64,000 nt of DNA from an uncultured Acidobacteriota bacterium (GCA_963760685.1 CAVXEA010000003.1:181378-245377), one strand, 5' to 3'; numbered from the stretch's first letter, positions 14,773-54,542 are shown. Made by a program: numbers and translations. Notes: generated by a model from the letters alone, not told the origin.

Positions 14773-17700
14773 TTGCTCATCTCCTGCTCGGGTTGTGGCA
14801 AACGGGTCTCCGACCGGGCGCCGAAGTGCCCCTTCTGCGGAGTCGTCCAAGCCGGCCCACCCGCCGAGTCCGCCGCGCCCGCGGTCGCCCCCGCTCCCTT
14901 GGCCCCCGCCCCGCCGCCGGCCGTCGCTCTCGCGCCGCCCGCGCTGCCCGGCCTCTACCGTCGCGGTGATGCGATCGGCGACGCCTACCGCGTCCTCGAA
15001 GTCCTCGGGGAGGGCGGCTTCGGCATCGTCTACCTCGTCTCGGCGCGGCGGAGTGGAGCCCTTCATGCCCTGAAGACCATTCGCGACGAGTGGTTGCGCG
15101 ACGACGCCACGCGCGCGCTCTTCCGCAAGGAGGCCGAACTCTGGATTGCCCTCGGCCGCCATCCCTACCTGGTCCGCGCCGACTACGTGGAGGAAGAACA
15201 CGGGCGCCTCCTCCTGGTGATGGAGTACGTCGCTCCCGACGCGCGGGGCATCTCGGGCCTGCAAGGACGCCTCGAGCGCGACCCGCCCGACCTCGACCAA
15301 TCGCTGCGCTGGGCCATCCAGTTCTGCCACGGCATGGAGTACGCGTACTCGCGCGGCATCCGCTGTCACCGGGACATCAAGCCCGCGAACATCCTCCTCG
15401 GCGCCGACGGCGCAGTGCGCATCACCGACTTCGGCATTGCGGGGGTGGTGGCGCCGGGGGCCGAGGCGTCAAAGGCGGCGCAGGTCGAGGGAATGGGCGG
15501 GACGGTGGCGGGGACGCGTGTTCGGGACCCCGACCCACATGTCCCCCGAGCAGTTCGCAGGACGCGGCGAGCTGCGACGAGCGCAGCGACGTCTACAGCT
15601 TCGGCATCGTGCTGTACCAGATGGCGTCGCGCGGCGTCCTTGCCCTTTCTGCCCCACATCGCTCCCGGACCCGACGCGGCGCGGCGCTTCTTCCTCGCGA
15701 TGCGCCGGCTGCACGAAGCAGAGCCCCCTGCCCCTCTCGACTCACCGATCATGCCCATGATCGCGCGATGCCTGCAGAAAGGTCGAGCGGCACGTTACCC
15801 GGGCTTCGCGGCCCTGCGCGCCGACCTCGAGCGCCTCTTGCGCGAGCGCACGGGCGAGACGGTCAGCGTTCCCGAAGAGGCGAGGAGCGCCGCCACCGAG
15901 CTCTGCCAGAAGGGCATCAGCCTGGCGAGCCTGGGCCGTCACGAGGCCGCCCTTGCCTGCTACGACGAGGCGCTGCGCCAGGGCCCCGGCCGGGACGACG
16001 AAGGCGCCCTTCACAACAACCGGGGCAACGCTCTCTCCCACCTCGGCCGCCACGCGGAAGCGCTCGAGGCCTTCGCCCGGGCCCTGGAGCTGCGGCCCCG
16101 CTACGACAGCGCCTTCGCCAACCGCGGTCTCGCCCTCGCCCGCGCCGGCCGGTTCGCCGAGGCGCTCCTCGACTGCGACCTTGCGCTCGGCCAGAACGCC
16201 CGCAGCTCCGAGACCTGGCAGGCACGCGCGGTCGCGCTCGCAGGCTTGGGGCGGCGCGACGAGGCGATCGCCTCCTATGACCAGGCGCTGGCCATCGACG
16301 ACCGCGATCCGCTCGCCTGGGGCAACAAGGCAGGCCAGCTGCTGGAGCTCGGCCGCTACGCCGAGGCCCTCCCCTGCTACGACCGCGCTCTCGCCCTCGA
16401 TCCCCATGCGCACCGCCGCTGGGTCGGCAAAGCCACGACCCTCGCACAGATGGGACGCCATGACGAGGCGCTCCTCTGCTACGACGAGGCCCTGCGACTC
16501 GACCCCGGGGACCCACACGCCCACTACAACAAGGGCAACTCGCTCGTGCAGCTCCAGCGCTACGAGGAGGCCCTGATCTGTTTCAGGCAGGCCAACCTCC
16601 TGGCCCCGAAGGCCGCGAGCCCCTGGTACAACCGGGCGGTGGCGGAGCTGGTGCTCGCGCGGCCGAAGGAGGCGGGCGCGTCTTTGCGGCGCTACCTCTC
16701 GCTGGACCCGCCCCGGGACAGCCTGTTCGCCGAAGCCCAGTGGCTCTTGAACGGCATCGACACCGGCCAGCTCACGCATCTCCAGTCGGGCGGTGGCCCG
16801 CCGAAGCAGGGCGAGCTTCGCGCAGCCGCGGAGCTCGGAGGCCCCAGCCCCCCTGCGGCCACGGCAAATCCCGCCGTGGCCAGTCCGGTCTCGCTGCCCC
16901 AGGCGCCGCCTCCCGCGCCGCCCCGGGTCCGTCCGCCCCTGGGTCCGACCGTGTCCGACCTGAACAACGAGGGCAACGCCCAGTTCCAGGGGGGACGCTT
17001 CGCCGAAGCCCTGGCTTGCTTCGAGCGCGCGCTCGCGCTCGACCCCTTCGACGCCACGGCCTTGGGCAACCGAGCCAACGCCCTGTTCAAGCTCGGGAGG
17101 GTCGAAGAGGCGATCGCGTGCCACGAGAGCGCCCTCGCCTGCGACCCCTTCTTCATCGCGAGCTGGTCCAACAAGGGGGCCATCGAGCTGCTGAGCGGCC
17201 AGAAGTCACGGGCCCTCGCCTCGTTCCGTGAGGTGGTGGCCCTCGCCGGCAAGGGGTACGAGGCCAACCAGGCGGACGCGGAGGCGCAGGTCCGCAAGCT
17301 CGAGCAGGCCGGAGTGACGGCGCCGCCACGGGGCGGCCTGGGCTGGCTGGGGACAGGGGCGCGGCAGGGCGCGCGCGGCCGCTTCCCGGACGCCATCGAG
17401 GCCTTCGATCGCGCCCTCGCTCTTGCCCCCGATCTCACGGAAGCCTGGCTCATGAAGGCCGAAGCTTTGCGCCAGCTTCGGCGCCCCGACCAGGCGATGG
17501 CCCTCCTCGACGAGGCCCTGCGCCGTCGGCCCGACGACCCTCGGATCTGGCACGCGCGAGGTGCGGAGCTGGCCAAAGCGAAGCGGTACGAGGACGCGGT
17601 CGCCTGCTTCGACCGCGCGCTCGCGGGGGAGCCGCGGCATCCCGCCTCGTGGAGCGACCGTGGCAAGGCCCTCGGGGTCTTGAAGCGCTTCGAGGAGAGC

Positions 17701-22115: not shown

Positions 22116-24810
22116 GTGTCGGCCCCGAGGAGCTGCCCGAGCTGCTCGAGTCCCCTCCCTGCGGGGAGTCGCTTCTGCGGGTCCTGCGGTCAGCCCGCCG
22201 TACCCTCGTCCGCGCTGCCGACGATGGAGCGTCCGCGATCGCGCCCCGTCGTCTTCGGAGGCGCGGTTCCTTCCCGGCGTCATCCTCGCCGGCCGCTACC
22301 GCATCATCGGACTTCTGGGACGAGGCGGGATGGGTGAGGTCTACCGGGCCGACGACTTGAAGCTCGGTCAGCCGGTCGCCCTCAAGTTCCTGCCGCCGGG
22401 ATTCGACACGAACGCCGAGCGCCTCCAGCGTTTCCTCGACGAAGTGCGCACCGCGCGCCAGGTCTCCCACACCAACGTCTGCCGGATCTACGACGCGGGC
22501 GAGGCCGACGGGCATCACTTCCTGTCGATGGAGTACGTCGACGGCGAGGACCTGGCGTCCCTGCTGCGCCGCATCGGGCATCTCCCGAAGGACAAGGCGA
22601 TCCAGATCGCGCGACAGCTCTGCGCCGGCCTCGCGGCCTCCCACGAAATCGGCGTGCTGCACCGCGACCTGAAGCCGGCGAACATCATGATCGATGGCCG
22701 TGGCCGCGCGCGCATCACCGACTTCGGCCTCGCCCGGTTCGTGGAGGAGATCGAAGGCGCGGAAATCCTCTCCGGCACTCCGGCCTACATGGCGCCGGAA
22801 CAGCTCGCGGGACGGGAGGTCTCCGTCCGCAGCGACATCTACTCTCTCGGTCTCGTGCTCTACGAGCTGTTCACCGGGAAGCAGGCGTTCAAGGCGACTC
22901 GGTGGACGAGCGGAGGCGCTGCAATCGGAGACGACGCCGTCTTCCCCGTCGAGCCTCATGGAGGACTTCGATCCGACGGTGGAGCGGGTCATCCTCCGCT
23001 GCCTGGAGGCGGATCCGGCGCGCCGGCCATCCTCGGCCCTGGCGGTCGCGGCGGCGCTCCCGGGTGGCGATCCGCTGGCCGCCGCGCTCGCCGCCGGAGA
23101 AACGCCGTCCCCGGAGATGGTGGCCGAGGCGGGAGACAGTGCTGCGGTGTCGCCGGCGATCTCCTGGAGCGCGCTCGCCGTGTTCTTCGCCGCGCTCGGC
23201 GCCTTCGTTGCGCTGTCGCCCCGCACTTCGCTCTTGGGATTGGCGCCGCTCGAGAAGCCGCCCGAGGTGCTTCAGGAGCGCGCGCGGGAGATCCTCGCGG
23301 AGGCGGGCCACGACCGGAAGCCGGCCGACAGTCTCTTTGCCTTCGAGGCGAATCGCGACTACCTCGAGGACGTGCTGCGGCGAGCGGGGTCGGGCGCACT
23401 CCGATGGGACGTCCTCCGGGCGACCCCGCCGAGCGGAATCGTCTTCTGGTATCGCCAGAGTCCCGCACCGCTGATACCGCTGAACGGAGCCCTGATTGGA
23501 TGGTGGCTGGAAGATCCTCCGGACGCAACGCCGGGAATGGCGCGGGTCGGCCTCGACGCCGACGGACGGCTGATCTCGTTGCTCGTGGTTCCGGACGAGC
23601 GTACGCCGCCAGGACCGGCTGCGCCGGAGCCGGACTGGGGGCCGCTCCTCCGCGCGACCGGTGTCGATGCGACTTCGCTCGTGCCCGTGCCGCCGGAGTG
23701 GGCGCCACCGGTCTTCGCGGATCGTCGCGCCGCCTGGACGGGATCGTGGCCCGGGAAGCCGGAGGTACCGCTCCGGATCGAGGCCGCCGCGGCGGATGGC
23801 AAGCCGGTATCGCTGCGGATCGTCCTGCCGTGGACCCGCCCCGCGGAGGCGCCGGAGCCGCAACGAGGCTTCTGGAATCGAGCCTCGCAGTTGATGCACG
23901 TGTTCTTGCCCGGAGTGGTCGTCGTGGCGGCAGGCTTCGTGGCGCTCCGAAACGTGCGCCGGGGCCGGGGAGACCGCCGCGGCGCGCTCCGGCTCGCCCT
24001 GTACCTGGGGGCCGCCCGATTGCTGTGGTTCCTCGGGGCGCATCACGTGGCCTCGACCGCCGAGTTCGACCTGTTCATGTCGCACCTCTCGTACGCCATG
24101 CTGCGGGTCGGGCTGGCGTACGTGTTCTACCTGGCGATCGAACCCTACGCCCGCAGGCTGTGGCCGCGGATGCTGGTTTCCTGGGTGCGGATTCTCGACG
24201 GAGGCTTCCGCGACCCCCTCGTGGGCCGCGACCTCCTGGTCGGGGCTGCTGCCGGCGCGTTGGTCGCCCTGGTGGGACGGCTCCAGTTCTGGATTCCCGC
24301 GGCGCTCGGCGGAACGTCGGCGCTCCCGACCTTCGGTCACTGGACCTTCGAGCCGCTCCGGGGAACCGTGCCGGCGTTCGTCTCCGTCGTGGGCATCCAT
24401 ACCCAGGCGCTCCTGGAGATCATCTTCCCGATGACGTGGCTGCTGATCTTCCGGTTGTTGCTGCGGCGCACCGTTCCTGCCGCTCGTCGTCGCCGGGCTG
24501 CTGGGCTCGATCCTGTTCTACCCCGAAACGGGGAGCATCCCGGGATACATCGTCGGATGGGCCTTCAGCATTGCGCTTTTCTGGGGTGTTCTGTTCCGAT
24601 TCGGTCTTCTGGCCTTCGCGGCCATGTTCCACGTGTACAGGCTGCTCGACCAGCTGCCGCTGACGCTTGCACCCGGACGGCTGGTACCTGGGGGCGGTGC
24701 TTCTGGCCCTGACCTTCATCGCCGCTCCGGCGCTCTGGGGGTTCTGGACGTCACAGGCGGGACGGCCGCTGTTCCGCGACGAGATCCTGGAGCCGGCGGC
24801 GCGGCGCTGA
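22116..24810 (+). CDS. Zn-ribbon - Ser/Thr kinase - multi-pass membrane sensor; at least 4 frameshifts
   Basis: CPSC...CGSC (ORF 22023), kinase GRGGMGEVY/HRDLKPAN/DFG/GTPAYMAPE (ORF 22099), then TM, periplasmic region and several TMs (ORF 22694); ends at TGA 24808-24810. Confidence 0.82.
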
Positions 24811-29649: not shown

Positions 29650-32263
29650 GTGAGCGTCGAGCGAGCCGACGACGACGACCTCGCGCCCGCGGACTGGGGC
29701 CGCGTGAAAGAGGTGTTCCAGGAGGCCCTCGAACGGGACGTGGCGCTACGCCCGGCGTTCGTCGCGAATCGGTGCGGGGAAGATGCGGCCCTCCAGAAGA
29801 CCGTGGAGGCCCTCCTCGCCGCCCACGACGAGGCGGGCTCGTTCCTCGAGACTCCGACGGAATTGGCGGGTATGGCGGCCGGCCTCCTCGGCCGCGGTGA
29901 GCTGACGGGGGCGCTCGCCATTGGCAGCCGGGTCGGGCCGTACGAGGTCCTGGCCTTGCTCGAGGCGGGCGGGATGGGCGAGGTCTATCGGGCTCGCGAC
30001 GTACGCCTCGGCCGGGACGTGGCGGTCAAGGTGCTGCTGCCTCACTACTCGAAGGACCCCGATCGCCTGCGACGCTTCGAATCCGAGGCCCGCACCGCGG
30101 GGGCCATCAACGACCCCAACATCGTGACCGTCTTCGACGTGGGCTTTGACCAGGAGAAACCCTATCTCGTCTCGGAGCTGCTGGAAGGGGAGACGCTGGG
30201 CCACCGCCTGCGCGGCGGGCGTCTCGGCGTCCGCCAGAGCGCCGAGTTCGCCGCCCAGATCGCGCACGGCCTCTCCGCGGCCCACGAGAAGGGGATCGTC
30301 CATCGCGATCTGAAGCCCGACAACGTGTTCCTCACGAAGCGCGGCCCCGTGAAGCTCCTCGATTTCGGAGTCGCGAAGCTGATCCATGGGGCCCCCGACG
30401 AAACCAAGGAGCTCCTCGCGGGAGGGAGCCGGGCGGAGAGCACGCTCATGGGAACACCGGGCTACATCGCACCCGAGCAGCTGGAAGGCAGCGCCGTGGA
30501 CCACCGGGCCGACATCTTTGCCCTCGGGGCGGTGCTGTACCTCATGCTCACGGGGCGCTTCGCTTTCGCGGAAGAGACCACGTTCGAGGGCCTGCGCGCG
30601 ACGTTGACCAAGGCCCCGCGGCCGTTCTTGCCCACGGACGGGGTGCCGCCGAATCTACAGCGTATCGTCCTGCGCTGCCTGGAGAAGCGGCCGCAGGATC
30701 GCTTCCAGTCCGCCCACGAGGTGGGCATCGCATTGCGAGAGTTCATGGGGAGGCCTGTCGGTCTCGGTGGGCGCTCGGTTGGGCTCGGCATCGCCGCCGC
30801 GGTCGTGCTGCTCGTCGCGCTCTTCCTGTTCGATCGCGGACGCCACGCCGTTCCCAAGGGCGGGCCCGGGCCCGGCGTCGTCCGCTCCCTGGCGGTGCTG
30901 CCCTTCGAGAACGTCTCCGTTGGCGCCGACCAGGACTACTTCGCCGACGGGATGACGGATGCGCTCATCGCGGAGATCGGCCACACCCACTCCAGGGGTT
31001 TGCGGGTCATCTCTCGCGCTTCGGTCATGCCCTTCAAGGGGCGAAAGGCGGACCTTGGCGAGATCGGGCGTGCGCTCGGGGTGGACACCGTCGTCCAGGG
31101 CACGGTCCGGCGCGCCGGGAGAGCAGGTCGCACCTTGCCGTTCGGCTCGACCCGCGCCGCCACGGGAGAACGCCTGTGGGCCGGCAACTTCGAGGGGCGG
31201 ATGAACGCGATCGGTGAGCTCCAGCACCAGGTTGCAGGCGCCATCGCGACGGCCATCGCACCGGCCGACCAGCCCTCCCGCCCTTTGCCGCGCCCCCGTG
31301 AGCCACGGAGCGTCGAGGCCTACGAGGCCTACCTTCGGGGCCGCTACTACTGGAACATGCGGTCGGAGGAGGGGATCGCCAAGGCCATCGACCACTTCAA
31401 CCGTGCCCTCGAGCTCGACCCTCTCTATGCGCAGGCCTACACGGGCCTCGCCGACGCCCTGGTGACCCTCGGCGACATGCTCTACCTCATGCCTTCCCAC
31501 GACGCGTTCGCGAAAGCCGAAGCGGCGAGCCTGCGCGCGCTCGACCTCGATCCGTCCCAGGCGGAGGCGCATGCGACACTCGGCCATCTTCGAACGCACG
31601 CCTGGCGGTGGACCGAGGCGGAGACGGAGTTCCAGAGCGCGCTCGCGTTCAATCCCGCCTACGCCACCGCGCACCACTGGCGTGCCTACAACTTCGCCTC
31701 CCTGGGCCGGTCGGACGAAGCGATCGCCTCCATCGGGCGCGCCCAGGAGCTCGATCCGCTGTCGCCCATCATCGACGCGGACCGGGCCCAGATCCTCTTC
31801 TTCACGGGCCATCCCGACGACGCCATTGCCCAGTGCCGGAAGACCCTGCAGGTGAACCCCGGTTTCGCCGAGGCGCGACGCATCCTGTTCCTGGCCTTGC
31901 AGCGCACCCACCGCGACGCCGAGGCGCTCCACGAGCTCAGGGCCTATCATCGGCTTCCGGGTGGAGGCCCGGGCGGCAGCGTGGGCTGGGCGTACGCGGT
32001 GCTGGGCCATCGCGCGGAGGCCCTGGCCGTGCTCGAGGGAGCAGGAGCGGAGCCCGCAGAAGCGATTCGTGCCGCGGTACGACCTGGCGGTGATCTATGC
32101 CGGCCTCGGTGAGATCGACCGGGCGTTTTCGTTGCTCGACGAGTCCCTGACCACCCACGATCCCGAGAGCATGATCCTTCCCGTCGATCCCCGGCTCGAT
32201 GCGCTGCGCGGCGACCCCCGGTTCGGGGCCCTTCTCCGTCGCATGGGGTTGCCGCCGCCCTGA
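29650..32263 (+). CDS. Ser/Thr kinase - TM - TolB-like domain - TPR; frameshifts about 31130 and 32040
   Basis: GGMGEVY, HRDLKPDN, DFG, GTPGYIAPE; one TM; SLAVLPFENV...DYFADGMTDALI; EAYEAYLRGRYYW; TPRs. Confidence 0.87.
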
Positions 32264-38018: not shown

Positions 38019-40604
38019 CTACCTGCCACTCCCGACTTGCGCCGGAGCGAGCAGCTCTTGAAACGCGGGCAAGTGGCGTAGCGACTCGAATCCGGGGATG
38101 CCGAACCACTTTGGAGAGAGACCACGCCGGCGCGCTTCCTTCGCGTCGACGATCGCGTGGTTCTGCTCCCCACAGAGCGCGTAGATGAGCGCCGCCTGGA
38201 AGACCACCTGCGGATCGCGGTCACCCTCGGCGAGGGCTTGGATCGTCAGCGCGACCGCCGAAGCCGCATCGCCCAGACGGGCCAACGCCTGCGCCTTGAT
38301 CAATCGTTCGGACACGGTGAGGGCGCCGCTCGCTTCGCGCCGGGCGACGCTATCGACCAGCTCGCGATAGAGCCGGTGAGCGCCCTCCTCGTCTCCGGCA
38401 CCTTCGAGTGCTATGCCCAGGTTCAAGCGGTTGAGAAGGTCGTCCGGCACCAATTCGAGGGCCCGCCGATAGGCCCCCGCGGAGGCGGAGTAGTCTCCCG
38501 CAAGCAGCAGGCTCCATCCAAGATTGCTGAGATCCGGTTCGGTGACCTTCTCCTTCAGCAGGCCCTCGTAGATCCGGGCCGCATCCCGAGGATCGCCCAT
38601 CAGCCACTCCAGCTCCGCCCTCATGGCCAGCCCCTTGGGATTGCCGGGTGAGAGCTGAAGCAACTGCTCGAGATGCTGGCGCGCCCTCTTCGCGTCCCCG
38701 AGGTCCATCTCGACTCTGGCGACGTTCCAGAGGTTCTTCCACGACGGCCGCTCGAGCACCAGCCTCCGGTGAACCTCCGCCGCCTCCTGGAGCTTGCCCT
38801 GACGGGCCAGAAGCCTTCCGCGCGCACGCCACGCGCGAATGTCCCCGGGCGCGCTCCTCTCCAGCTCGGCCAGTGCCGACTCCGCATCGGCCATTTGCCC
38901 GGTCTCCAATTCCAGCAGGAAGCGCTCATTGGCAAGTCGCAGGTCGGCGACCTGGTGGGCGACGGCCGACTGGAGGATCGCCTCGGCCCGCGGACGGTCG
39001 CCCAGGAGGCGTGCCGCCCGGGCCGACAGCAGGTAGGCTTCGGTCAGGCCAGGCGAGGAGCGCGTGAGCTGCTCCAGCGCGTCGATGTCCGGGCGCACCA
39101 GCGCCTCGCCGATCTCCGCGCGCTTCAGCAACTGGAGGTAGCGCGCGTAGTCGGTGCTCTTCACCTCGATACGCTCACTCGACGATCGCGGGCGGTGGTC
39201 GGGAAACGCCTCGCGGATGTGGAGGGCGACGGCGCTAGCCAGGGCGAGGGAGTCTTCGGGCTCGCTCGAGACATCGAAGGAACCCGTGCTAGTGATCAGG
39301 CGGCCGTCGCGGGCGCGTTCGCGGCGCAGCGAGACCCGGCACCAGTGGCCCTGGCAGGCGACGGTGGGGACGACGATCTCGTCGGCGGCCACGGCGCGGG
39401 CGGCATCCTGGACCGAGAGCGGGCCCTCGGGGAGCTCGCTGGGCTCGATCGGCTCGATGCCCCCGAGACCCGCGAGCGCACGGAGCGCGGCCTCACGGAG
39501 CGCGAACGCGGCGAGAGTAGACCGCTCGTCTCCCGGTGCTGGAGCAATCCTGGGCTCCTGGACCAGCACGGCATCGGGCCGAGCCGGCGGCCGGCTCCAC
39601 CAGAGGGCGACGCCGGCGATCGCAACGAGGGCCAACACGAGGGTCGCGGTCAGCAGCGGCCAGCGACCAGCGGATCGACGGCTCTCGATCCTTCGGAGCC
39701 GCTCCGCGACGCTCTCGGCGCTCGCGGGCCGTCGCGCCGGATCCTTCTCCAGGAGGTCCTTGACGAGCGTCGCGAGAGGCGCGGGCACGCTCGGATTGAG
39801 GTCCGACGCCGAGGGCGGCACCTCGGCGATCACCCTCTCCAGGGTCTGTCCACGGTCGTCTCCACGAAAGGGTGACCGCGCCGTGCAGATCTCGTAGATG
39901 AGGACCCCCAGCGAGAAGAGGTCGGACCGCACGTCGAGCGTGCCACCCTTCGCCTGCTCGGGCGACATCGCGCGGCGCGTGCCCACGACGGCCCCTTCGG
40001 CCGTCAGCGAATCGTCGTCGGCCCCCGGTTCGAGGCGCTTGGCCAGACCGAAGTCGAGGATCTTCGCCTGGCCCGACGGGGTGACCATGACGTTCTGGGT
40101 CTTGAGGTCACGGTGGATCAGGCCCAGGCCGTGGGCCGCGGCGAGCCCCTCCGCGACCTGGCGCGCGATCCCGATCGCCTGGGGCACGGGCAGAGGACCC
40201 CTCGTCAACATCTGCGCCAGGGTGCGTCCCTCCACGTATTCCATCACGATCGCGTCGCCGGACTCGTCCTCGAGGATGTCGTGAACCTGGACCACCGCGG
40301 GGTGGTTGAGGGTGGCCGCGGCGGCTGCTTCGCGGCGGAGCCGCTCCCGGGCCAGGGGATTCATCTGGCGGCCGGCGTGGATGCGCTTGATGGCGACTTG
40401 CCTCTGGAGGCGAGTGTCGAAGGCCAGTACCACGGTGCCCATGCCGCCGGAGCCCAGGGCGCCAAGGACACGGTAGACGCCGATGTGCGCGGCGTCCGTC
40501 TGATCCGCGCCGTTTTCCTTGGCGGGTGTCGACTTCTCGCCCGCCGCGGTACTGAGGACACCCGGGACGGCAGGACGGAAGAGCGGGTCCTCCGGATTGG
40601 TCAA
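38019..40604 (-). CDS. Ser/Thr kinase - TM - TPR protein
   Basis: GSGGMGTV, HRDLKTQN, DFG, MSPEQ; TM WPLLTATLVLALVAIAGVALWW; C-terminal TPRs; TTG start with GAGG upstream. Confidence 0.88.
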   Translation of the reverse strand: MTNPEDPLFRPAVPGVLSTAAGEKSTPAKENGADQTDAAHIGVYRVLGALGSGGMGTVVLAFDTRLQRQVAIKRIHAGRQMNPLARERLRREAAAAATLNHPAVVQVHDILEDESGDAIVMEYVEGRTLAQMLTRGPLPVPQAIGIARQVAEGLAAAHGLGLIHRDLKTQNVMVTPSGQAKILDFGLAKRLEPGADDDSLTAEGAVVGTRRAMSPEQAKGGTLDVRSDLFSLGVLIYEICTARSPFRGDDRGQTLERVIAEVPPSASDLNPSVPAPLATLVKDLLEKDPARRPASAESVAERLRRIESRRSAGRWPLLTATLVLALVAIAGVALWWSRPPARPDAVLVQEPRIAPAPGDERSTLAAFALREAALRALAGLGGIEPIEPSELPEGPLSVQDAARAVAADEIVVPTVACQGHWCRVSLRRERARDGRLITSTGSFDVSSEPEDSLALASAVALHIREAFPDHRPRSSSERIEVKSTDYARYLQLLKRAEIGEALVRPDIDALEQLTRSSPGLTEAYLLSARAARLLGDRPRAEAILQSAVAHQVADLRLANERFLLELETGQMADAESALAELERSAPGDIRAWRARGRLLARQGKLQEAAEVHRRLVLERPSWKNLWNVARVEMDLGDAKRARQHLEQLLQLSPGNPKGLAMRAELEWLMGDPRDAARIYEGLLKEKVTEPDLSNLGWSLLLAGDYSASAGAYRRALELVPDDLLNRLNLGIALEGAGDEEGAHRLYRELVDSVARREASGALTVSERLIKAQALARLGDAASAVALTIQALAEGDRDPQVVFQAALIYALCGEQNHAIVDAKEARRRGLSPKWFGIPGFESLRHLPAFQELLAPAQVGSGR

Positions 40605-43117: not shown

Positions 43118-45240
<2,123 letters not shown>

Positions 45241-46718: not shown

Positions 46719-47299
46719 TCAGGCCTTCGCCTCCATGATCCTCCGCGCCTTGGCGAGCGCGCGCAAGAGGCCGGCGTCGGGCCCGAGGGTCGTCCCCTCC
46801 GTTCCGAGGGTCGCCACTTCGTCCCAGGAAACCCAGCGCATGTCGCGGGTCTCTTCCGTCGATCGCGAGAACACGGCGTCCGCGGGGGCCACGACCAGAT
46901 AGCGCAAGTCCAGGTGCTGGTGAGCGGGCTCGGGCCCCCGCGCCGGAATGTCGTGGACGTCGACGTCCAGCGGCCGGGGGCGCCCGCATGAAGAGTGAGC
47001 CCCGCGAGGCCCGTTTCCTCGAGGGCTTCGCGCAGCGCCACGTCCTCGCCCGCGGTCTCCCCGGGATCGGCGTGCCCGCCCGGCTGGAGCCAGCGGTCGA
47101 GCTTCTTGTGGTGAAGCAGGAGGGTGCGCGTGCCGTCGGCCGAGAGCACGATCGCGCTGCCGGTGAGATGGCCAACCGCGATCCGCCGGTCGAAGGGGTC
47201 GGGGTTTTCGGCCACGAACGCGCGGATCTGCGCCAGGTCGGCGGCCTCGGCGTCGTCCGCGGGCCGGTGCCGGGCGAGCGCATCGGCAAGCAGGCTCAT
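46719..47299 (-). CDS. NUDIX hydrolase; frameshift about 46985
   Basis: HLTGSA, WLQPGGHAD...ALREALEETGL (Nudix box); continues as DVHDIP...HQHLDLRY. Confidence 0.88.
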
Positions 47300-47312
47300 G
47301 GACGGCATTGTA

Positions 47313-47364: not shown

Positions 47365-47399
47365 GTTGGGCACAATGGAGCCTCCGGCGAGGGCAAGAG

Positions 47400-47846
47400 A
47401 TGGACATCGTCGCGGTCAACCACGAGGGGACTCTCTTCGTTTCGGGAGAGATCGAAGACTGGACCGTGGTCAAGGGCCACGGCATCGACACGATCGTGGA
47501 CATGGACGGCGACGTGGACCCGGGTCTGCCCGAGGCGCCCAACCAGATCCTCTATGTCTATTTCCCCATCTTCGACGAAGCGCTCCCGTCGCTCCAGAAG
47601 CTCGACTCGGTGGGACGACTGGTGGCCGACCTCGTCGGCAACGAGCATCGGGTGCTGGTCCACTGTCGCATGGGTCTCAACCGGTCGGTGCTGGTGATCG
47701 CCACCGCGCTCACGTACCTGGGCTACTCCGGGGAGCGGGCGCTCACTCACTTGCAGGGGATCCGTCCGGGAGCCCTCTACAACGAGACGTTTGCGGAGCA
47801 CGTCAAGACGCTGCCGGCCCGCCGGCTCCGCCTCGAGCTCGACTGA
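47400..47846 (+). CDS. Dual-specificity protein phosphatase family protein
   Basis: Cx5R active-site loop VHCRMGLNRS. Confidence 0.88.
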   Translation: MDIVAVNHEGTLFVSGEIEDWTVVKGHGIDTIVDMDGDVDPGLPEAPNQILYVYFPIFDEALPSLQKLDSVGRLVADLVGNEHRVLVHCRMGLNRSVLVIATALTYLGYSGERALTHLQGIRPGALYNETFAEHVKTLPARRLRLELD

Positions 47847-47935: not shown

Positions 47936-49799
47936 ATGACGCGTTGCGCTCTTCTCCAGCCGAGCATCGGGACCAAGGCTCCCACCCTCCTGGCCCTCGC
48001 GGCCATCGTGCTCGGCCCGGGCGCCCGCCCCGCCCGGGCGCAAGCCAGCGCCGCCGGTTTCTACACCTTGCCGCCCTGCCGAGTCATCGACACGAGGGCC
48101 TCCGGCGGGGTCCCCATCGGCGGTGGGTACCCCCTGTTCGGCAACACGGTCCTCACCGCCGACGTGCGGGGGGCGTGTGGACTGCCAGGGAACGCGATCG
48201 CGATCTCGTTCAACGCCACCGTGACCCAGCCCACGGCCGCGGGGAACCTGCGGATCTACCCCGGGAACATCTCGACTCCTCCGGGGACCTCGTCGATGAA
48301 CTACATTGCGGGACAGACGCGGGCGAACAACGGAATCGTGCCCTTGAGCGCGGACGGCAAGTTGAACGTGTATTGCGGCCAGGCCTCGGGGACGGCCCAC
48401 GTGATCCTGGACGTCAACGGCTACTTCGCCACGACCGACCAGGTGGCCACGCCCGCGGGCCTGGCCGTGGTGGTGCATCCCGCCCCTGAGGTCGAGATCA
48501 CCTTCGACAATGTGACGACACCTGGATTCACGACGGCACGGGTTCTCGAGTTTGGCGACATCCCGGGGCGGTCCGGCCCCGTAGACCTGAAGAACTTCTT
48601 CCCGCCGGGGTCTCCCGAGCAGGCGCTGGTGCCGAGCGCTATCGTCCCCCCCTACGTCGTGCCCCTCCCGAAGGGCGGGCCCGGCGGCCTGAACACCTTC
48701 GTTCTCTCGCTCATCGACTCGACCGCCAGCTTCGCCCGCACCGCGGAGTTTCACGGTCACGAGAACTTCCGCCTCGGGTGGGACCCGCCCTGCAGCAACC
48801 CCGCGGACCGCACCCAGGAGCCACGCACCTTCTACGCCCGGGAGAGCAGCGAGCCGCCCCTCGCGGAGGAGAGTGGCTTCGGGGGACCGGGGTTCGTCGA
48901 CATCTCCTCGGGCTGCGGGAGCAACAAGGGCAGCGGCTGGAACTTCTCGGCCTACCTGACCGCGCAGAGACACGCGCAGCCCCCACGACATCGCCCAATT
49001 CATGCTGACCCAGATGCAGGCCGCGCTCACGCAGCTTTCCACGTTCATCACCAGTGGGGTCCTCACCCAGCTCGGCAACGAGGTCACGGCCGCCATCAGC
49101 ACCCTGGATACGACGCCCGCTTCTTCGCTCGCGAACGTCGACAACGTCATCACCATCGTGGACGCGAACCCGGGAGCTTTCACGAACACCACGCGCAACG
49201 TGAGCGGCGAGCTCGTGGGACGCGCCCAGTCCGCACGCTACATGCTGCGCAAGTTCATCGGGTTCGATGCCTACACGGAGCCGGAGCCCTTCCAGGCCGC
49301 GATCCAGGGGCTCACCCCCACGACGATCACGTTCGACAACCTGGGCTTGGACCAGATCCTCCCCAGCCCCACGACGCTCTCAGGGGCGACCTTCAACTTC
49401 TCAGCCGTCGGCGGCTTTTCGGGCCTGGCCACCGACGATTTCTTGTCCGTCTCTCATCCCCAGACCCTGGGCATTGACCGGCTGGGGTGCGCCCCTGGTC
49501 CGTCCTGCAAGTTCTTCTACCCGGGAGACAGCGTCACCGTGACCTTCAGCCCGCCGGTGCGCGCGATCGGGGCCTTCTTCTCGTCGAACGCGGGCGCGGC
49601 CACCCTGCAGGAGTTCATCACGGTGTCGACCCCGGTGGGGACGGCGAAGAACCGCAATGCCTTGCCCGCGGGATCGTACGGGTTCCCGGCCTTCAGCCTG
49701 CGATTCGTGGGCCTCGTTTCCGAGGTGCCGTTCAGCACGGCCACCTTCAGCACCTCGGCGTTCGGGATGGTGATGGACGACCTCACCTTCGCTCGCTGA
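47936..49799 (+). CDS. Large exported modular protein with N-terminal PCRxxDTR module; frameshift about 48965
   Basis: GGAGG RBS; signal peptide; FYTLPPCRVIDTR...VILDVNGYF module; continues in ORF 49002..49799. Confidence 0.75.
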
Positions 49800-49813: not shown

Positions 49814-52800
49814 CTACCGGGTGTGCGGGCGTGAAGTGAGGCCGGCGAAGCTCGCCCCCGCAGCATGCTGCCACAAGAACTCGTTGTTGCAGCCGTCCGG
49901 AAGGCCCGCGGCGCAGGCGCGGCTCAGCAGGTCTGCCGCCCGAGCGGGATCCCTGGGTACGCCGGTCCCCCTCGCGGTCAGCACGCCCAGGTCGTTGCAG
50001 CCCCAGGGGTCGCCGGCCTCGCAGGCCTTGGCGTAGAGGGCGGCCGCGCGGGCCATGTCCGCGGGAACGCCTTGGCCGCGCTCGTACGAGAAGGCGAGTG
50101 AGACGCAACCAGCCGGCTCGCCGCCGTCACAGGCCTGCTGGTAGAGCGCGAGCGCTCGGGAGAGGTCGGCCGGAACGCCGTCTCCTCGCTCGTAGGCCGA
50201 GCCGAGGCTGACGCAGTCTTCCAGGTAACCGGCCGCGCAGCCCTTCGGGAAGCCGGGAGCACCCGTCGACCAGCTCCACGCTGATCTCCACGGACGCGCC
50301 GCCTCGCGAGACGCCCAGGCTCACCCTTTGCCCCGCGCGACGCCGGCGCAGCTCGCGCACCAGGTCTCCCTGGTTGCGAACCTCGATCCCGTCGATCGCC
50401 CGGATCCCGTCACCCTTCCGGAGGCCGGCGCGAAAGGCCGGCCCTCCTCGGTTGACGTTCGCCACGAGGACGCCGCGGCCCGGACCGCCGGAGGACGCGG
50501 AGGCATCGAGCTGCAGACAGAGGATCCCGAGCCGCGGCGACTCCGCGTCGAGGGCCGCCAGCCCCTTGCGAGCCAACTCCTCGATCCCCACCATTTGCCA
50601 CTCGGCTTGCGCCTCCGGCCGAGTGCGTTCCTCCCTGGCCGTGCGGATGGCCTCCTGAAACAACCGGCGAGCGTTGTCATCGTCTCCCAGGCCCATGTAG
50701 GCCTCGGCCAGAAGTGAGGCGTCCGCGGCGATCTCGTTTGGTTCACGGACCCGGCTGTAGAACGGTGCCAGCACCCGGATCGCCTCCCCGTAGTCGCCGT
50801 GCCTCACCCCAAGCGACGCCCTGTACATTGCCCAAACCGGACGCCAGTCCGGGGTCTGCGTAACCACGTCGAGAAGGGTGGCCAGAAACCCGAACAGCAC
50901 GAACAAGAGGGCCACGCCGGTCACGACCGCGAGCGCCGTGCCGGAGCGGACGGACTCCGGGACCCTGATCCTCTTCCGGAGTGAATAGAGCACCACGAGG
51001 GCCACGATGAGCAGCGGCGAGAGCCGGACCACCGAATTGGAGGCAAAGATCAACATACGGACGGCCAGTGGCAACTCCCGGTTCGAGAAGCTCGCCAAGC
51101 TCGCGGCGGTCGGGATGACTTTCCACAGGTAGAAGCCGACGATCAGGCCGGCCGCGATCATGAGGCCCACGCTGTTGATGTTCATGAGCTGGCGCGCGCG
51201 ACGACGACCGCGCGCCTGGGTTTCGGACGCAAGGATGAGCGCCCGCTCCGCCTCCGAGAGCGCGATCCCCGGAGTCTGAGCGAGCGGCAACGCCTCTTCG
51301 AGCGGCTTGCCTTCGGCGAGCAAGAGGTCTCGCGGCTTGCCCTTCTCCCTCCAGAGCGCGGCCGCCGTGGCCACGCGACCGCGAACCCGTAGCAGCTCGC
51401 GGTTCTCCTCGACGAAGCTGCGGAGCCGCGGCCACGAGTGCAGCAAGGCCTCGTGGGCGATCGAGACCACGGCGCGGCCGTCGTCGCCCCGGTCGGCGAC
51501 GAACAGCCTCGCTGCGACGAAGGCATCGACGAGGGAGCGGCTGCCCGCTGCGGCGAACGAGTCGAGCGGCGCGTACCGTCGGTGCAGGGTCTCCTCCTCG
51601 CCGGTGGCGACCGCCACCAGGGCGCGGAATACCCCAGGGAGAGCGTCCTGGACCGAGGTGGAAAGGGAGGCGAAGACCGCCTCGGCCCGTTGGGCCAAGG
51701 CTCCTTCGACGCCGCCCATGCGCTCGTACGCGGCGTGAGTCAGGAGGCCCTCGGCCGTGCGCTGCCGGTAGAGGTCCTCGAGGGTGAACTCCAGGAGGGG
51801 AAGGTTGCCGACCTGACCCGCGGCCGCGTCGCGCAAGACCTCGTCGAGTCGGGCCTGCGTGCTCGGGTCCTCCTCGAACGCGAGCCCGGCCGCCCGCGCC
51901 GGCAGACGGATCATCTGCCCGATCTCGGCGGGCGTCGGTGGCCCGAGGTGGTATTGGCCCGCACCTTCCTTCAGGGCCATCAGCTCCGCGAGCTCCTCGC
52001 AGCGGGCGTAGTAGTCGCTCCGGAGCGTGCCGATGACCCACACGCGGCCGCTCCGTGCCAGGGCCGAGAGCGCGTCGACGAACCCCTTCCGCTCGTCGGG
52101 TGTGACCTTCTCGAGAGTGAACAGCTCCTCCATCTGGTCGATCACCAGCACCAGGCGCGTGTCGGGTTGCTCCGTCCACCCCTCCGCGCGCTTCATCGCG
52201 GCGGCGGCCTGGGAGAGCCCGCCCTTCACCAGGGGAGGCGCTCCCTTCGGGCTCTCGCGCAGCAGTCGCGCCAGCTCGCCGGCGGTCGTGCCATCGGCCC
52301 CGAGCTCCGGAAGCGCCTCCTCTCGCATCAGGGCCGAGGCCAGGCCGTCGAACAAATTGCCGGAGGAATCGGCGGGCCGGAGAATCGCCCGCCGCCAGAG
52401 GCCCACGCCTCCGATCGTGCCCGGTCGCAGCAGCAGAGGCAGGACCCCGGCCCGGACCAACGACGACTTGCCGCTCCCGCTCGTGCCGAGCACGAGCGCG
52501 AAGGCCCGCCCGCTCGCGGCCTGCGTCTTGAGCGCGGCGAGAACGTCCTCCGTGGCCCGGGACCGTCCGAAGAAGATGCGGGCGTGCTCGAAGTCGAAAG
52601 CAGCCAGGCCCCGGTACGGGGAGCCCGACGTCCACGTGGGAGAGGGCTCGTCGGACTCCTCGATCGCCTTCCCCAACTCCGCGTAGGACCCTGGGCGCCG
52701 GCCGGGATCCTTCTCGGTCATGCGCTCGACGAGCGCTGCGAGTTGCGGGGGCGTCTCCGGGCGTTTCTCGCGGAGCGAGGGCAACGGCGTGTGGAGGTGG

Positions 52801-53603
52801 TGGGCCACCACCGCCGCGGGCGTCGTGCCGTGAAACGGTCGGGCCCCCGCGAGCATCTCGTAGAGGACGATGCCCAGGGAGTAGATGTCGCTCCGGAGGT
52901 CCACGGTCTCTCCTCGCGCCTGCTCGGGAGACAGGTAGTGAGGGCTCCCGACGAGCTGGCCCGTGTGGGTCAGCGATGCTTCATCGCTGGCCACCTCGGG
53001 AAGCGCGAGCTTTGCCAGGCCGAAGTCCGCCACGCGCACGTGGTCGCGCGCGTCCAGGAGGAGGTTCGAGGGCTTGATGTCGCGATGGACGATCCCCCTT
53101 TCGGAGGCCGCCTCGAGCGCGCCCGCCACCTGCAGCACGATCTCGATCGCCTCTTCGACGGAGAGTCTTCCGACTCGCCGGATGCGATCGCCCAGGCTCT
53201 CTCCCTCGACGTACTCCATGACGAGGTAGACGACGCCGGCGCTCTCGCCGTAGGAATAGACCCGCACCACGTGCGGATGCTCGACCGTGGCCATAGCACG
53301 CGCCTCGCGCAGGAACCGCACGCGCGCCCCCTGGTCTCGCGGCCCCCGGTCTCCGGAAATCACCTTGATCGCAACCAGGCGGCCGAGGGTCGTGTCCTCG
53401 GCCAGGTAGACCGTCCCCATCCCGCCTTCGCCCAGCTTGCGCAGGATTCGGTGGTCCCCGAGCGTTGTGCCGATCAGCGACGCGGCGGCTTTGCCTCGGT
53501 ACGGTGCGGTCGCAGGGAGGAGCGGATCCGAGCCCTGGCTCAGGGTATCGTGGTCATCCCCTTCCGAAAGTGGGCCAGGCGAAGAGGGCGGATCCTCGCT
53601 CAT
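49814..53603 (-). CDS. Ser/Thr kinase - STAND (nSTAND1-like) NTPase - 3 TM - TPR-like - PDZ - Sel1 repeats; frameshift about 50255
   Basis: Kinase GEGGMGTV/HRDIKPSN/DFG/GSPHYLSPE; SPYRGLAAF...FFGR, Walker A GTSGSGKSS, Walker B LVIDQMEELF, GNLPLLEF, HEALL..WPRL; PDZ GPAFRAGLRKGD; four Cys-containing Sel1 repeats after the shift. Confidence 0.85.
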
Positions 53604-53649: not shown

Positions 53650-54542
53650 TCAGGCGGCGGCTTCGGCCTCGGCTTCGATCACGGGCGCCGGCAAAGGCTC
53701 GCCCTTGCGGATGCGGAATCGCTCCGCGTTCTTCGGCAGGAGCTGGATGTCGCGGGCGATGCCGAGCGCGGCGAGAACGCGGATCACCATCCAGTTGGTG
53801 TCCACTTCCCACCATTCGAGGCCGTGCCGAGCCGAGCGCTGGAAGGCGTGGTGGTTGTTGTGCCACCCCTCGCCCCAGGCCAGGAGCCCGACCCACCACA
53901 GGTTCGTGGAGCCCTCAGGGGTCTCGTAGGTCCGGTAGCCCCAGGTGTGGGTCGCCGAGTTCACGAACCAGGTCGTGTGCAGGACGACGACGAGGCGGAG
54001 GAAGATGCCCCAGACGACCAGCGACCAACCGCCCCAGGCATAGAGGGCCAGGCCCACGAGGACGTTCGGGCAGCACGTGGATGCGATTCAGGACGCGGTG
54101 GAACGGATCCGCCACCAGCTCGGGCGCGAAGCGAGCCTCCATCTGGCGACGGTCCATGCCGAGATCGCAGAGGATCCAGCCGATGTGGCTCCACCAGAAG
54201 CCGTCCTTGGGGGTGTGGAAGTCCTTGCCCGGCTTGTCGGACTGGGCGTGGTGGACGCGGTGCATGGCCACCCAGCTGATGGCGCCGCCCTCGCTGGCCA
54301 GCGTTCCGCAGATGGTCCCCAGGTACTCGAACCACTTGGGCGCCTTGTACCCGCGGTGGGTGAGCAGGCGGTGGAAGGTCACGCCGATGCCCGACGGACC
54401 CCGAGAGCCACCACAGGAAGAGCAGGACACCCAGACCCGTCCACGTGAAGTGCCACGCCGCCGTCAGGGCGATCGCGTGAATCACCGCGAAGTAGACGAC
54501 GTTGACGTAGTCGAAGCGCTTACCGTTCCAGGCGAGGGTCAA
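53650..54542 (-). CDS. Delta-9-type acyl-CoA/acyl-lipid desaturase; frameshifts about 54400 and 54070
   Basis: HRLLTH, HRVHH, NSATH, GEGWHNNHH; GAGGAGG before the TTG. Confidence 0.92.

Follow-up and report, generated by a model that had tools for sequence, protein, structure and literature searches.

A rare kinase-nSTAND1 protein of Acidobacteriota with a PilC-like membrane module and a predicted periplasmic PDZ/Sel1 sensor

STAND and NLR-type switches are generally understood as cytoplasmic sensors. The nSTAND1 NTPases (PF20703) were defined among counter-invader and conflict systems, in which a kinase is one of the N-terminal effectors (Kaur et al. 2021, PMC8195603), and for bNACHT proteins bearing transmembrane (TM) helices a role in sensing intramembrane or periplasmic signals has been proposed (10.1101/2022.07.19.500537); as a general idea, bacterial NLR-like sensors with TM helices are thus not new. 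Here I describe a gene at 49814-53603, on the minus strand of a 64,000-nucleotide stretch of DNA from an uncultured Acidobacteriota bacterium (GCA_963760685.1 CAVXEA010000003.1:181378-245377); this whole stretch is called the window below, and positions are counted from its first letter. The product combines a Ser/Thr kinase, an nSTAND1 NTPase, three TM helices, TPR-like helical hairpins, a PDZ domain and four Sel1 repeats. With a probability of roughly 0.55, I predict that it is a single-gene transmembrane receptor kinase for envelope signals in soil Acidobacteria, gated by a STAND switch. The features that carry novelty, and that are worth follow-up, are a membrane module apparently derived from the type IV pilus platform protein PilC and a sensor held in common with anti-sigma factors.

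The minus-strand open reading frame (ORF) from 53633 to 50127 corresponds to a frame of 1168 amino acids (aa), of which the likely start is the ATG at 53603; the database gene call of the same genome (P0006, 1158 aa) begins at the identical ATG. The stop of the whole gene lies at 49814-49816, and its product measures about 1262 aa when a single extra base, treated below, is discounted. Pfam searches of the 1168-aa frame return Pkinase at residues 63-315 (E 5e-53), nSTAND1 at residues 339-768 (E 1e-99, 335 bits against a cut-off of 27.1), sub-threshold TPR matches at 945-1004 (best E 5e-4) and PDZ_2 at 1036-1121 (E 6e-15, 55.8 bits against a cut-off of 27). Hydropathy adds three hydrophobic helices at residues 819-837, 871-885 and 899-924, and the second frame, 50260 to 49817, matches Sel1 (E 2e-23, 82 bits). 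The extent and order of the whole gene follow from the ORFs, their translations and intact homologues that are encoded as single ORFs (P0003/P0014, P0004 and others). An earlier reading of the sequence, hereafter the original prediction, had given the same gene ends and the same order of domains, and all of the motifs it named (SPYRGL, GTSGSGKSS, LVIDQMEELF and LPLLEF) were recovered by motif search. In ten aligned homologues, which are 58-89% identical over their full length, the kinase Lys, HRD, DFG and SPE, the Walker A and B motifs, the P-R-L-G stretch of the PDZ domain and eight Cys residues are invariant or nearly so. In P0008, P0013, P0014, P0207 and P0212 a zinc-ribbon-like CxxC...CxxC segment precedes the kinase; it is absent from the window protein and its two closest relatives.

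The part predicted to be cytoplasmic is intact, as had been claimed for its kinase motifs and its nSTAND1-like NTPase. The Hanks-type kinase domain (PF00069) lies at 52689-53447 (-) and also matches the PknB-type model of NCBIfam (E 3e-97, below the equivalog cut-off). It contains GxGxxG (53409-53435), VAIK (53361-53375), HRD within HRDIKPSN (53064-53090), DFG (53019-53027) and SPE (52920-52934), all on the minus strand, and its catalytic residues are invariant or near-invariant in the ten homologues. The nSTAND1 module at 51330-52619 (-) covers positions 1-378 of the 379 of PF20703, and the homologues likewise contain the module at full length. Its motifs are SPYRGL (52605-52622), Walker A GTSGSGKSS (52461-52487), Walker B LVLVIDQMEELF (52119-52154) and LPLLEF (51786-51803), again on the minus strand; the P-loop and the Walker B core LVLVIDQMEE are intact, and both are invariant in the ten homologues. 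A C-terminal helical linker of the STAND module follows at 51189-51329 (-), delimited by the alignment and by an AlphaFold2 (AF2) model of the C-terminal part of P0004. The linker ends in the Arg-rich RGRRRARQ (51189-51212), which leads into TM1, and in the AF2 model a single continuous helix runs from the Arg-rich stretch into TM1, a layout shared with paralogues and with distant nSTAND1 proteins.

The membrane part reveals an unexpected kinship. TM1 (51123-51179), a loop with KVIPT..ELPLAVR..ASN (51024-51122) and TM2 (50979-51023) form a hairpin at 50979-51179 (-) that reads 'LWKVIPTAASLASFSNRELPLAVRMLIFASNSVVRLSPLL' and resembles the most conserved stretch of PilC/GspF; the corresponding stretch of the genome's own PilC (C3:3245991-3247199) is 'LWKVIPTFASMFAGLNAELPLPTRIVIAMSNWFVRLLPFL'. 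By BLASTP, the window protein matches this PilC with 43% identity over 67 aa (E 2e-13) and the homologue P0007 does so with 52% over 60 aa (E 1e-16), and the family profile retrieves PilC from the 46,933 ORFs of the genome at E 7e-18. The conserved PilC motif LWKV(I/V)PTFA...ELPLPTR...SNW.VRL is kept in the hairpin, and the succession of TM1, a VVPxF...LPxxT loop and TM2 that marks PilC/GspF is present. The Pfam model T2SSF (PF00482) matches neither the complete protein nor the TM segment taken alone, with E values up to 10 allowed, whereas the true PilC scores 118 and 113 bits; the two cytoplasmic T2SSF domains are absent from the window protein. As the Pfam model apparently does not include the hairpin, the kinship emerges only when the protein is compared directly with the PilC of the genome. 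Judged by these alignments, TM1, loop and TM2 are clearly homologous to PilC and seem to have been copied from it. The remainder of the module (50862-50978, minus strand), defined by hydropathy and by counts of Lys and Arg, consists of a basic loop, RKRIRVPESVRSG (50940-50978), predicted to be cytoplasmic, and TM3 (50862-50939).

Beyond the membrane module lie three kinds of domains that together form the predicted sensor. TPR-like helical hairpins, predicted to be periplasmic, occupy 50628-50834 (-), where the Pfam TPR matches are sub-threshold and the AF2 helices have block means of the predicted local distance difference test (pLDDT) of about 74-92; in a relative of anti-sigma type, P0059, TPR_12 reaches 38 bits (cut-off 30.1, E 1.6e-9), and in another, P0052, 27 bits (E 4e-6). 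An HtrA-type PDZ domain at 50271-50537 (-) is supported by the PDZ_2 match, by Foldseek, which returns the PDZ domains of the HtrA-family proteases HhoA, AlgW, DegQ and MucD and of the site-2 protease MucP, and by the invariant P-R-L-G stretch (PRLGI, 50523-50537), read as a putative carboxylate-binding loop. Four Hcp-type Sel1 repeats with a tail ending in SRPHTR follow at 49817-50260 (-). Their four Cys pairs (first codon bases 50239/50215, 50131/50107, 50023/49999 and 49915/49891, minus strand) have C-x7-C spacing and a period of 36 residues; seven of the eight Cys are invariant in the ten homologues and the remaining one is found in 9/10. The best sequence match of this part in the PDB is the secreted, disulfide-bridged Helicobacter cysteine-rich protein HcpC (1ouv, E 8e-41), with which the Cys align; disulfides are predicted here too. 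The solenoid has HcpC, HcpB and LpnE as its Foldseek matches. A PDZ domain and four Cys-paired Sel1 repeats were thus proposed correctly in the original prediction. Identity of the sensor is 45-50% across the family and rises to 82-88% for the two homologues nearest to the window protein. The extreme C-terminus, (S/A)R(P/A)(Y/H)TR (49817-49834 (-) in the window; P0004-P0014, P0053), is conserved with an invariant final T-R, and could be a self-ligand of the PDZ domain, a protease signal or a sorting signal; AF2 confidence is low where this tail might dock in the PDZ groove.

Several observations bear on the topology. The kinase and NTPase are placed in the cytoplasm because both need cytoplasmic ATP, and with three TM helices and the N-terminus inside, the C-terminal domains should therefore be outside. 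Lys and Arg number 4-8 in the 17 residues before TM1 and 3-5 in the 14 residues of the TM2-TM3 loop, compared with 3-4 in the 33 residues of loop 1 (ten homologues). In PilC the N-terminus is cytoplasmic and the loop equivalent to the hairpin loop is periplasmic. A disulfide-type Sel1 array and an HtrA-type PDZ domain are consistent with an oxidising, periplasmic location. Given the three helices, the Arg-rich flank and loop 2, the PilC-like hairpin, the Cys aligned with HcpC, the HtrA-type PDZ and the presence of the same module on anti-sigma factors, the predicted sensor most probably faces the periplasm, which is where the original prediction had put it. The AF2 model, which covers the last 472 residues of P0004 (mean pLDDT 72.7), shows three long helices, helical hairpins, PDZ and Sel1 solenoid, with good confidence in the soluble domains and weak confidence in the membrane part.

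The Sel1 repeats are reached through a change of frame. This break consists of a single extra base in a run of GGG followed by T at 50261-50264 (-) and sits between 'SVELVDG' and 'APGFPKGCAAGYLEDC'; the intact relative P0004 has the matching 'SVELAEGAPVFAKGCAAGYLEDC', and its junction agrees with the window sequence after removal of one base at gac-GG(G)T-gct. One frameshift before the Sel1 part had been noted correctly in the original prediction, at a position, 50255, that lies 6-9 bases from the true one. P0004 (1263 aa) is 89% identical to the window protein overall and 85% across the membrane and periplasmic part, and its contig (L011) is syntenic with the window. Searching the genomes of 40 relatives gave orthologues in five of them, and in three (G040, G029, G008) the frame runs unbroken for about 1307 aa; the protein of G040, P0003, is the database entry P0014 and has the order kinase, nSTAND1, three helices, PDZ, Sel1. 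About ten more clusters with exactly the same Pfam domains, P0004 among them, came from a search of 5.8 billion proteins. About 13 full-length homologue clusters carry one unbroken ORF, with proteins of about 1230-1290 aa, which confirms that the Sel1 part belongs to one gene.

Comparison with the intact genes of L011 reveals six frame breaks in about 12 kb: two in the fatty-acid desaturase gene (53677-54542 (-)), one in the NUDIX gene (46722-47308 (-)), two in the isoamylase gene (43118-45216 (+)) and the one in the kinase gene. The junction of the latter lies in the GGG run, and several of the other junctions inspected adjoin runs of 4-5 G or C. The other break points map to 54390-54400 and 54032-54069 in the desaturase gene, 46976-46979 in the NUDIX gene, and 44322-44443 and 44818-44837 in the isoamylase gene. 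Because the homologue ORFs are intact and similar breaks occur in three neighbouring genes, the frame break is very probably an indel error of long-read assembly rather than biology. If instead the extra base were genuine, the gene would be a real pseudogene in this organism and its protein would end after the PDZ domain with the tail that the PDZ frame adds beyond 'SVELVDG', 44 Arg/Pro/Leu-rich residues that have no counterpart in the homologues and are out of frame, without Sel1. The break is indeed present in the assembled sequence, and searching metagenome contigs for the junction with exact and gapped patterns yielded no further copy of it. However, the five other breaks lie in three ordinary genes, most of them at G/C runs or close to them; past the break, 148 codons of the Sel1 frame remain open and conserved, with all eight Cys kept; and an assembly in 3 contigs that is yet only 78.5% 'complete' is consistent with indel-rich long-read data. 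I consider a pseudogene highly unlikely. Nor is Sel1 a separate gene, as the homologues are single ORFs and no ATG, GTG or TTG is in frame before 50056, a start that would remove the first two repeats. A programmed frameshift was also ruled out, since the homologues have no shift and the neighbouring genes contain the same type of break. The assembly error rate seems to be about one indel per 2 kb, and any 'frameshift' or 'pseudogene' in this genome should therefore be treated with caution.

The membrane and sensor parts are not confined to kinases. A profile search with the region from TM to PDZ among 1.84 billion representatives retrieved only about ten proteins with the 3-TM part, the remainder being multi-PDZ proteins. 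Several of these ten have a short N-terminus of anti-sigma type (weak zf-HC2 matches) and are encoded directly downstream of a gene for an extracytoplasmic function (ECF) sigma factor; upstream fragments of these relatives match Sigma70_r4_2 at E 1e-9. P0052 (550 aa) joins an anti-sigma-like N-terminus to the complete module through Sel1, and relatives of about 305 aa end after the TPR part. The genome itself contains, outside the window at C3:563440-564644 (-), an ECF sigma gene followed by an anti-sigma factor of about 200 aa with the 3-TM module only. The characters of an ECF anti-sigma factor, and with them the classic inside/outside signalling layout, are thus found in P0052, P0060 and this minimal protein, and are lacking in the window protein. 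Among the kinase proteins there is a sister family of about 860-930 aa (for example P0207, and P0212 from the relative G036) whose members end a few residues past TM3. The PilC-like 3-TM module is therefore the constant element, joined to an anti-sigma domain or to kinase-nSTAND1, and with or without TPR, PDZ and Sel1. Two candidate carriers of the module were rejected: P0011, a TIR protein, shares only Sel1 repeats and has no 3-TM module, and P0317 shares only the anti-sigma-like N-terminus, which is there fused to a dynamin-like GTPase without the 3-TM module.

The NTPase half leads to a wider family. Six nSTAND1 paralogues are present in this genome, with 36-38% identity and some of them broken by frame errors; 4/6 have an intact kinase domain in the same frame, and three lie within 20 kb on contig C2 (loci C2:1647525-1667904, C2:1815801-1819547, C1:1309021-1313580 and C3:2331277-2335791). 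Each has an Arg run, one hydrophobic helix and a long repeat region that resembles a WD40-type propeller by appearance. More distant nSTAND1 proteins (P0240, P0250, P0278, P0256, P0261, P0262, P0270, P0247, P0251 and P0259), with source labels Bacteroidetes, Gammaproteobacteria, Planctomycetota and Thermoanaerobaculia, share a different conserved N-terminal domain, which I take to be DUF4062/TIR-like, and have C-termini of TPR, WD40, FGE-sulfatase or YD/RHS type. In these proteins too, the NTPase is immediately followed by an Arg-rich stretch and one hydrophobic helix, at which one protein of the set ends. Since all other nSTAND1 proteins inspected have such a helix behind the NTPase, anchoring in the membrane seems to be a general feature of nSTAND1. 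If the helix spans the membrane, the large repeat arrays of the distant proteins would be extracytoplasmic. The window protein is thus not unique in spanning the membrane, as its six paralogues and the distant relatives have the post-NTPase helix as well.

The family is rare. The architecture with the 3-TM module occurs in 7/301 genomes sampled from the class, or 3/129 genera. All identified loci are from Vicinamibacteria or Acidobacteriota and all members are from uncultured Acidobacteriota; the four loci in species-representative genomes all belong to metagenome-assembled genomes of Acidobacteriota or Vicinamibacteria. I found no paper on the combination kinase-nSTAND1-PDZ-Sel1 or on a PilC-derived hairpin in such proteins, so the impression that the architecture was unfamiliar is borne out by its rarity and by the lack of a published description.

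The gene neighbourhood is ordinary. In L011 the order is TetR regulator, short-chain dehydrogenase (SDR), small ORF, desaturase, kinase gene, convergent DSPc phosphatase, NUDIX hydrolase and M20 peptidase, and the window keeps this order with the addition of a secreted-protein gene of about 2 kb between phosphatase and kinase gene. The DSPc dual-specificity phosphatase gene (47394-47843 (+)) is convergent with the kinase gene and overlaps its 3' end in L011. It was not found beside more distant family members, so that a functional pairing with the kinase is at most tentative. No conserved operon partner emerged, as phosphatase, desaturase and the others are common only to the closest relative L011; at more distant loci the neighbours are unrelated (a PhdYeFM/ParE pair, other kinases, apparent MacB/FtsX-type permeases). 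The secreted-protein gene (about 47950-49799 (+)) is frame-broken and absent from L011. It contains a domain of about 120 aa ('PCRxxDTR...DVNGYF') that recurs in over 70 of the genome's ORFs, mostly in a C-terminal position, and that may be a sorting or anchoring domain. A gene of this kind lies beside the kinase gene and also beside the anti-sigma gene; a link between the two through it was rejected as chance because its domain is so frequent. The window also encodes four more Ser/Thr kinase domains, at 14965-15516, 22291-22899 and 29827-30741 (+) and at 39720-40532 (-), with 38-44% identity to the kinase of the kinase-nSTAND1 protein.

How an envelope receptor of this kind might work can be outlined as follows. 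A conserved, envelope-derived ligand would bind the periplasmic module, candidates being an exposed protein C-terminus for the PDZ domain and a peptidoglycan or envelope-protein ligand for the Sel1 array. The change would pass inward through the 3-TM module and along the unbroken helix between TM1 and the C-terminal domain of the STAND module, and autoinhibition of the NTPase would be relieved. Nucleotide-dependent oligomerisation would then gather the kinase domains, leading to trans-autophosphorylation and to phosphorylation of cytoplasmic targets. Ligand, oligomerisation, kinase activation and physiological output are all inferred here. Signalling is preferred over an immune role because the sensor is conserved and common to anti-sigma factors, and because the gene context is ordinary. 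Some points weigh against such a receptor: the topology is a prediction, and AF2 confidence is low for the TM part (pLDDT 51-65); the short sister family and the minimal anti-sigma factor have no periplasmic domains at all, so that the TM module, rather than PDZ/Sel1, may be the essential sensing or docking element; the patchy distribution (7/301) fits an accessory gene as well as a housekeeping stress sensor; and no experiment on any nSTAND1 protein was found in the literature, the family having been defined in the context of conflict systems (PMC8195603).

That definition, with a kinase among the N-terminal effectors, is also the point of departure for regarding the protein as an Avs/NLR-like immune system, in which a phage or predator component sensed at the envelope would trigger STAND oligomerisation, kinase activation and arrest or death of the cell. 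The conserved N-terminal domain and the TPR, WD40, FGE-sulfatase or YD/RHS-type C-termini of the nearest nSTAND1 relatives by NTPase sequence are typical of conflict systems, kinase-based defence proteins do exist (PD-T4-6 and mad6 matches), a PhdYeFM/ParE pair adjoins the gene in one genome, and the patchy distribution would fit. However, there is no defence island around the gene, the neighbours being desaturase, TetR regulator, SDR, NUDIX hydrolase, M20 peptidase and isoamylase. Among the 25 of 34 PADLOC matches listed, all fall within residues of about 40-340, the kinase domain, and none concerns the STAND or sensor part. The sensor has many invariant positions and is not hypervariable, and the same module drives ECF anti-sigma factors. 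With its PADLOC signal, among the matches listed, limited to the kinase, metabolic neighbours, no conserved partner and a conserved sensor, the Avs-like defence placement to which the original prediction pointed finds no support, and I regard an immune function as rather unlikely. The hairpin itself invites a different thought, namely that it docks at the pilus platform or binds pilins in the membrane, as has been suggested for PilC, with PDZ and Sel1 as accessories; the kinase, or the anti-sigma domain in the paralogous proteins, would then signal how much pilin is in stock or how active the pilus is. A precedent is PilS of P. aeruginosa, a sensor kinase that senses pilin within the membrane. 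The PilC motif of highest conservation is retained in the hairpin, which is 43-52% identical to the PilC of this genome, and the hairpin is constant where the periplasmic domains are missing, in the short kinase family and the minimal anti-sigma factor. This sensor of the pilus is nevertheless less probable still, quite unlikely in my judgement, as no pilus genes adjoin any family member and the cytoplasmic T2SSF domains that bind pilus ATPases are absent. Of the initial interpretation, one gene, a sensor probably outside the cytoplasm and a rare architecture for which no description was found have thus stood, in contrast to the defence role and the uniqueness of its membrane spanning, given that other nSTAND1 proteins have a helix as well.

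If the envelope receptor reading is right, the family offers a compact single-gene case, with a sensor that has periplasmic marks (disulfide-type Sel1, HtrA-type PDZ) and an ATPase and kinase in the cytoplasm; such a split between inside and outside means that it could show whether and how STAND oligomerisation is driven across a membrane. The anti-sigma factors with the same sensor module are a natural transcriptional reporter for finding the ligand, and the reuse of a PilC hairpin as a signalling module is an unusual domain capture. A wider proposal can be made only tentatively: a STAND NTPase might act as a transmembrane signal converter, a periplasmic ligand switching its oligomerisation and kinase by way of PDZ/Sel1 and the module borrowed from PilC, and a broader class of 'bacterial NLR-like' proteins might survey the envelope. 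If true, the same borrowed module would also serve anti-sigma outputs, and a large class of such proteins would have their repeat sensors outside the cytoplasm, monitoring the envelope and not the cell interior.

Compared with known systems, the window protein is closest in its NTPase to the nSTAND1 conflict systems (PF20703, PMC8195603), with a full-length module, intact Walker A and B and the succession of N-terminal enzyme, NTPase and C-terminal sensor; it differs in that its sensor is conserved and its gene context is not that of a conflict system. Like other nSTAND1 proteins, it has an Arg-rich stretch and a hydrophobic helix directly after the NTPase; however, a 3-TM module that appears to derive from PilC stands in place of the usual single helix, and TPR-like hairpins, PDZ and disulfide-type Sel1 stand where WD40, TPR or FGE arrays are usual. 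With Avs1-7 and bNACHT it shares the logic of effector, STAND and sensor, and TM-bearing bNACHT proteins have likewise been proposed as intramembrane or periplasmic sensors (10.1101/2022.07.19.500537), whereas it belongs to another STAND clade, its PADLOC matches, among those listed, are to the kinase only, and its sensor is predicted to lie outside the cytoplasm. The receptor kinases PknB (PASTA), PknD and PknH are similar in having a cytoplasmic Hanks kinase, in this case nearest to the PknB type, and an extracytoplasmic sensor across the membrane; the window protein differs in its STAND ATPase of 430 residues before the membrane, its three TM helices rather than one, and its PDZ/Sel1 sensor. 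TM1, periplasmic loop and TM2 are plainly homologous to PilC/GspF (43-52% identity, E 2e-13 to 1e-16), yet both cytoplasmic T2SSF domains are lacking, TM3 and the rest are unrelated, and the gene does not lie in a pilus locus. The Sel1 part resembles HcpB and HcpC, with C-x7-C pairs every 36 residues aligned with HcpC, and the PDZ domain resembles those of the HtrA family (DegS, AlgW, DegQ), with the fold and the x-hydrophobic-G-hydrophobic carboxylate loop of periplasmic proteases that read exposed C-termini; here, however, both are tethered to a membrane receptor, and there is no protease domain. Finally, the 3-TM module (with or without TPR, PDZ and Sel1) is shared with a small set of ECF anti-sigma factors of Vicinamibacteria type, one of them in this genome; in the window protein, kinase-nSTAND1 takes the place of the anti-sigma domain, and its gene has no sigma gene beside it.

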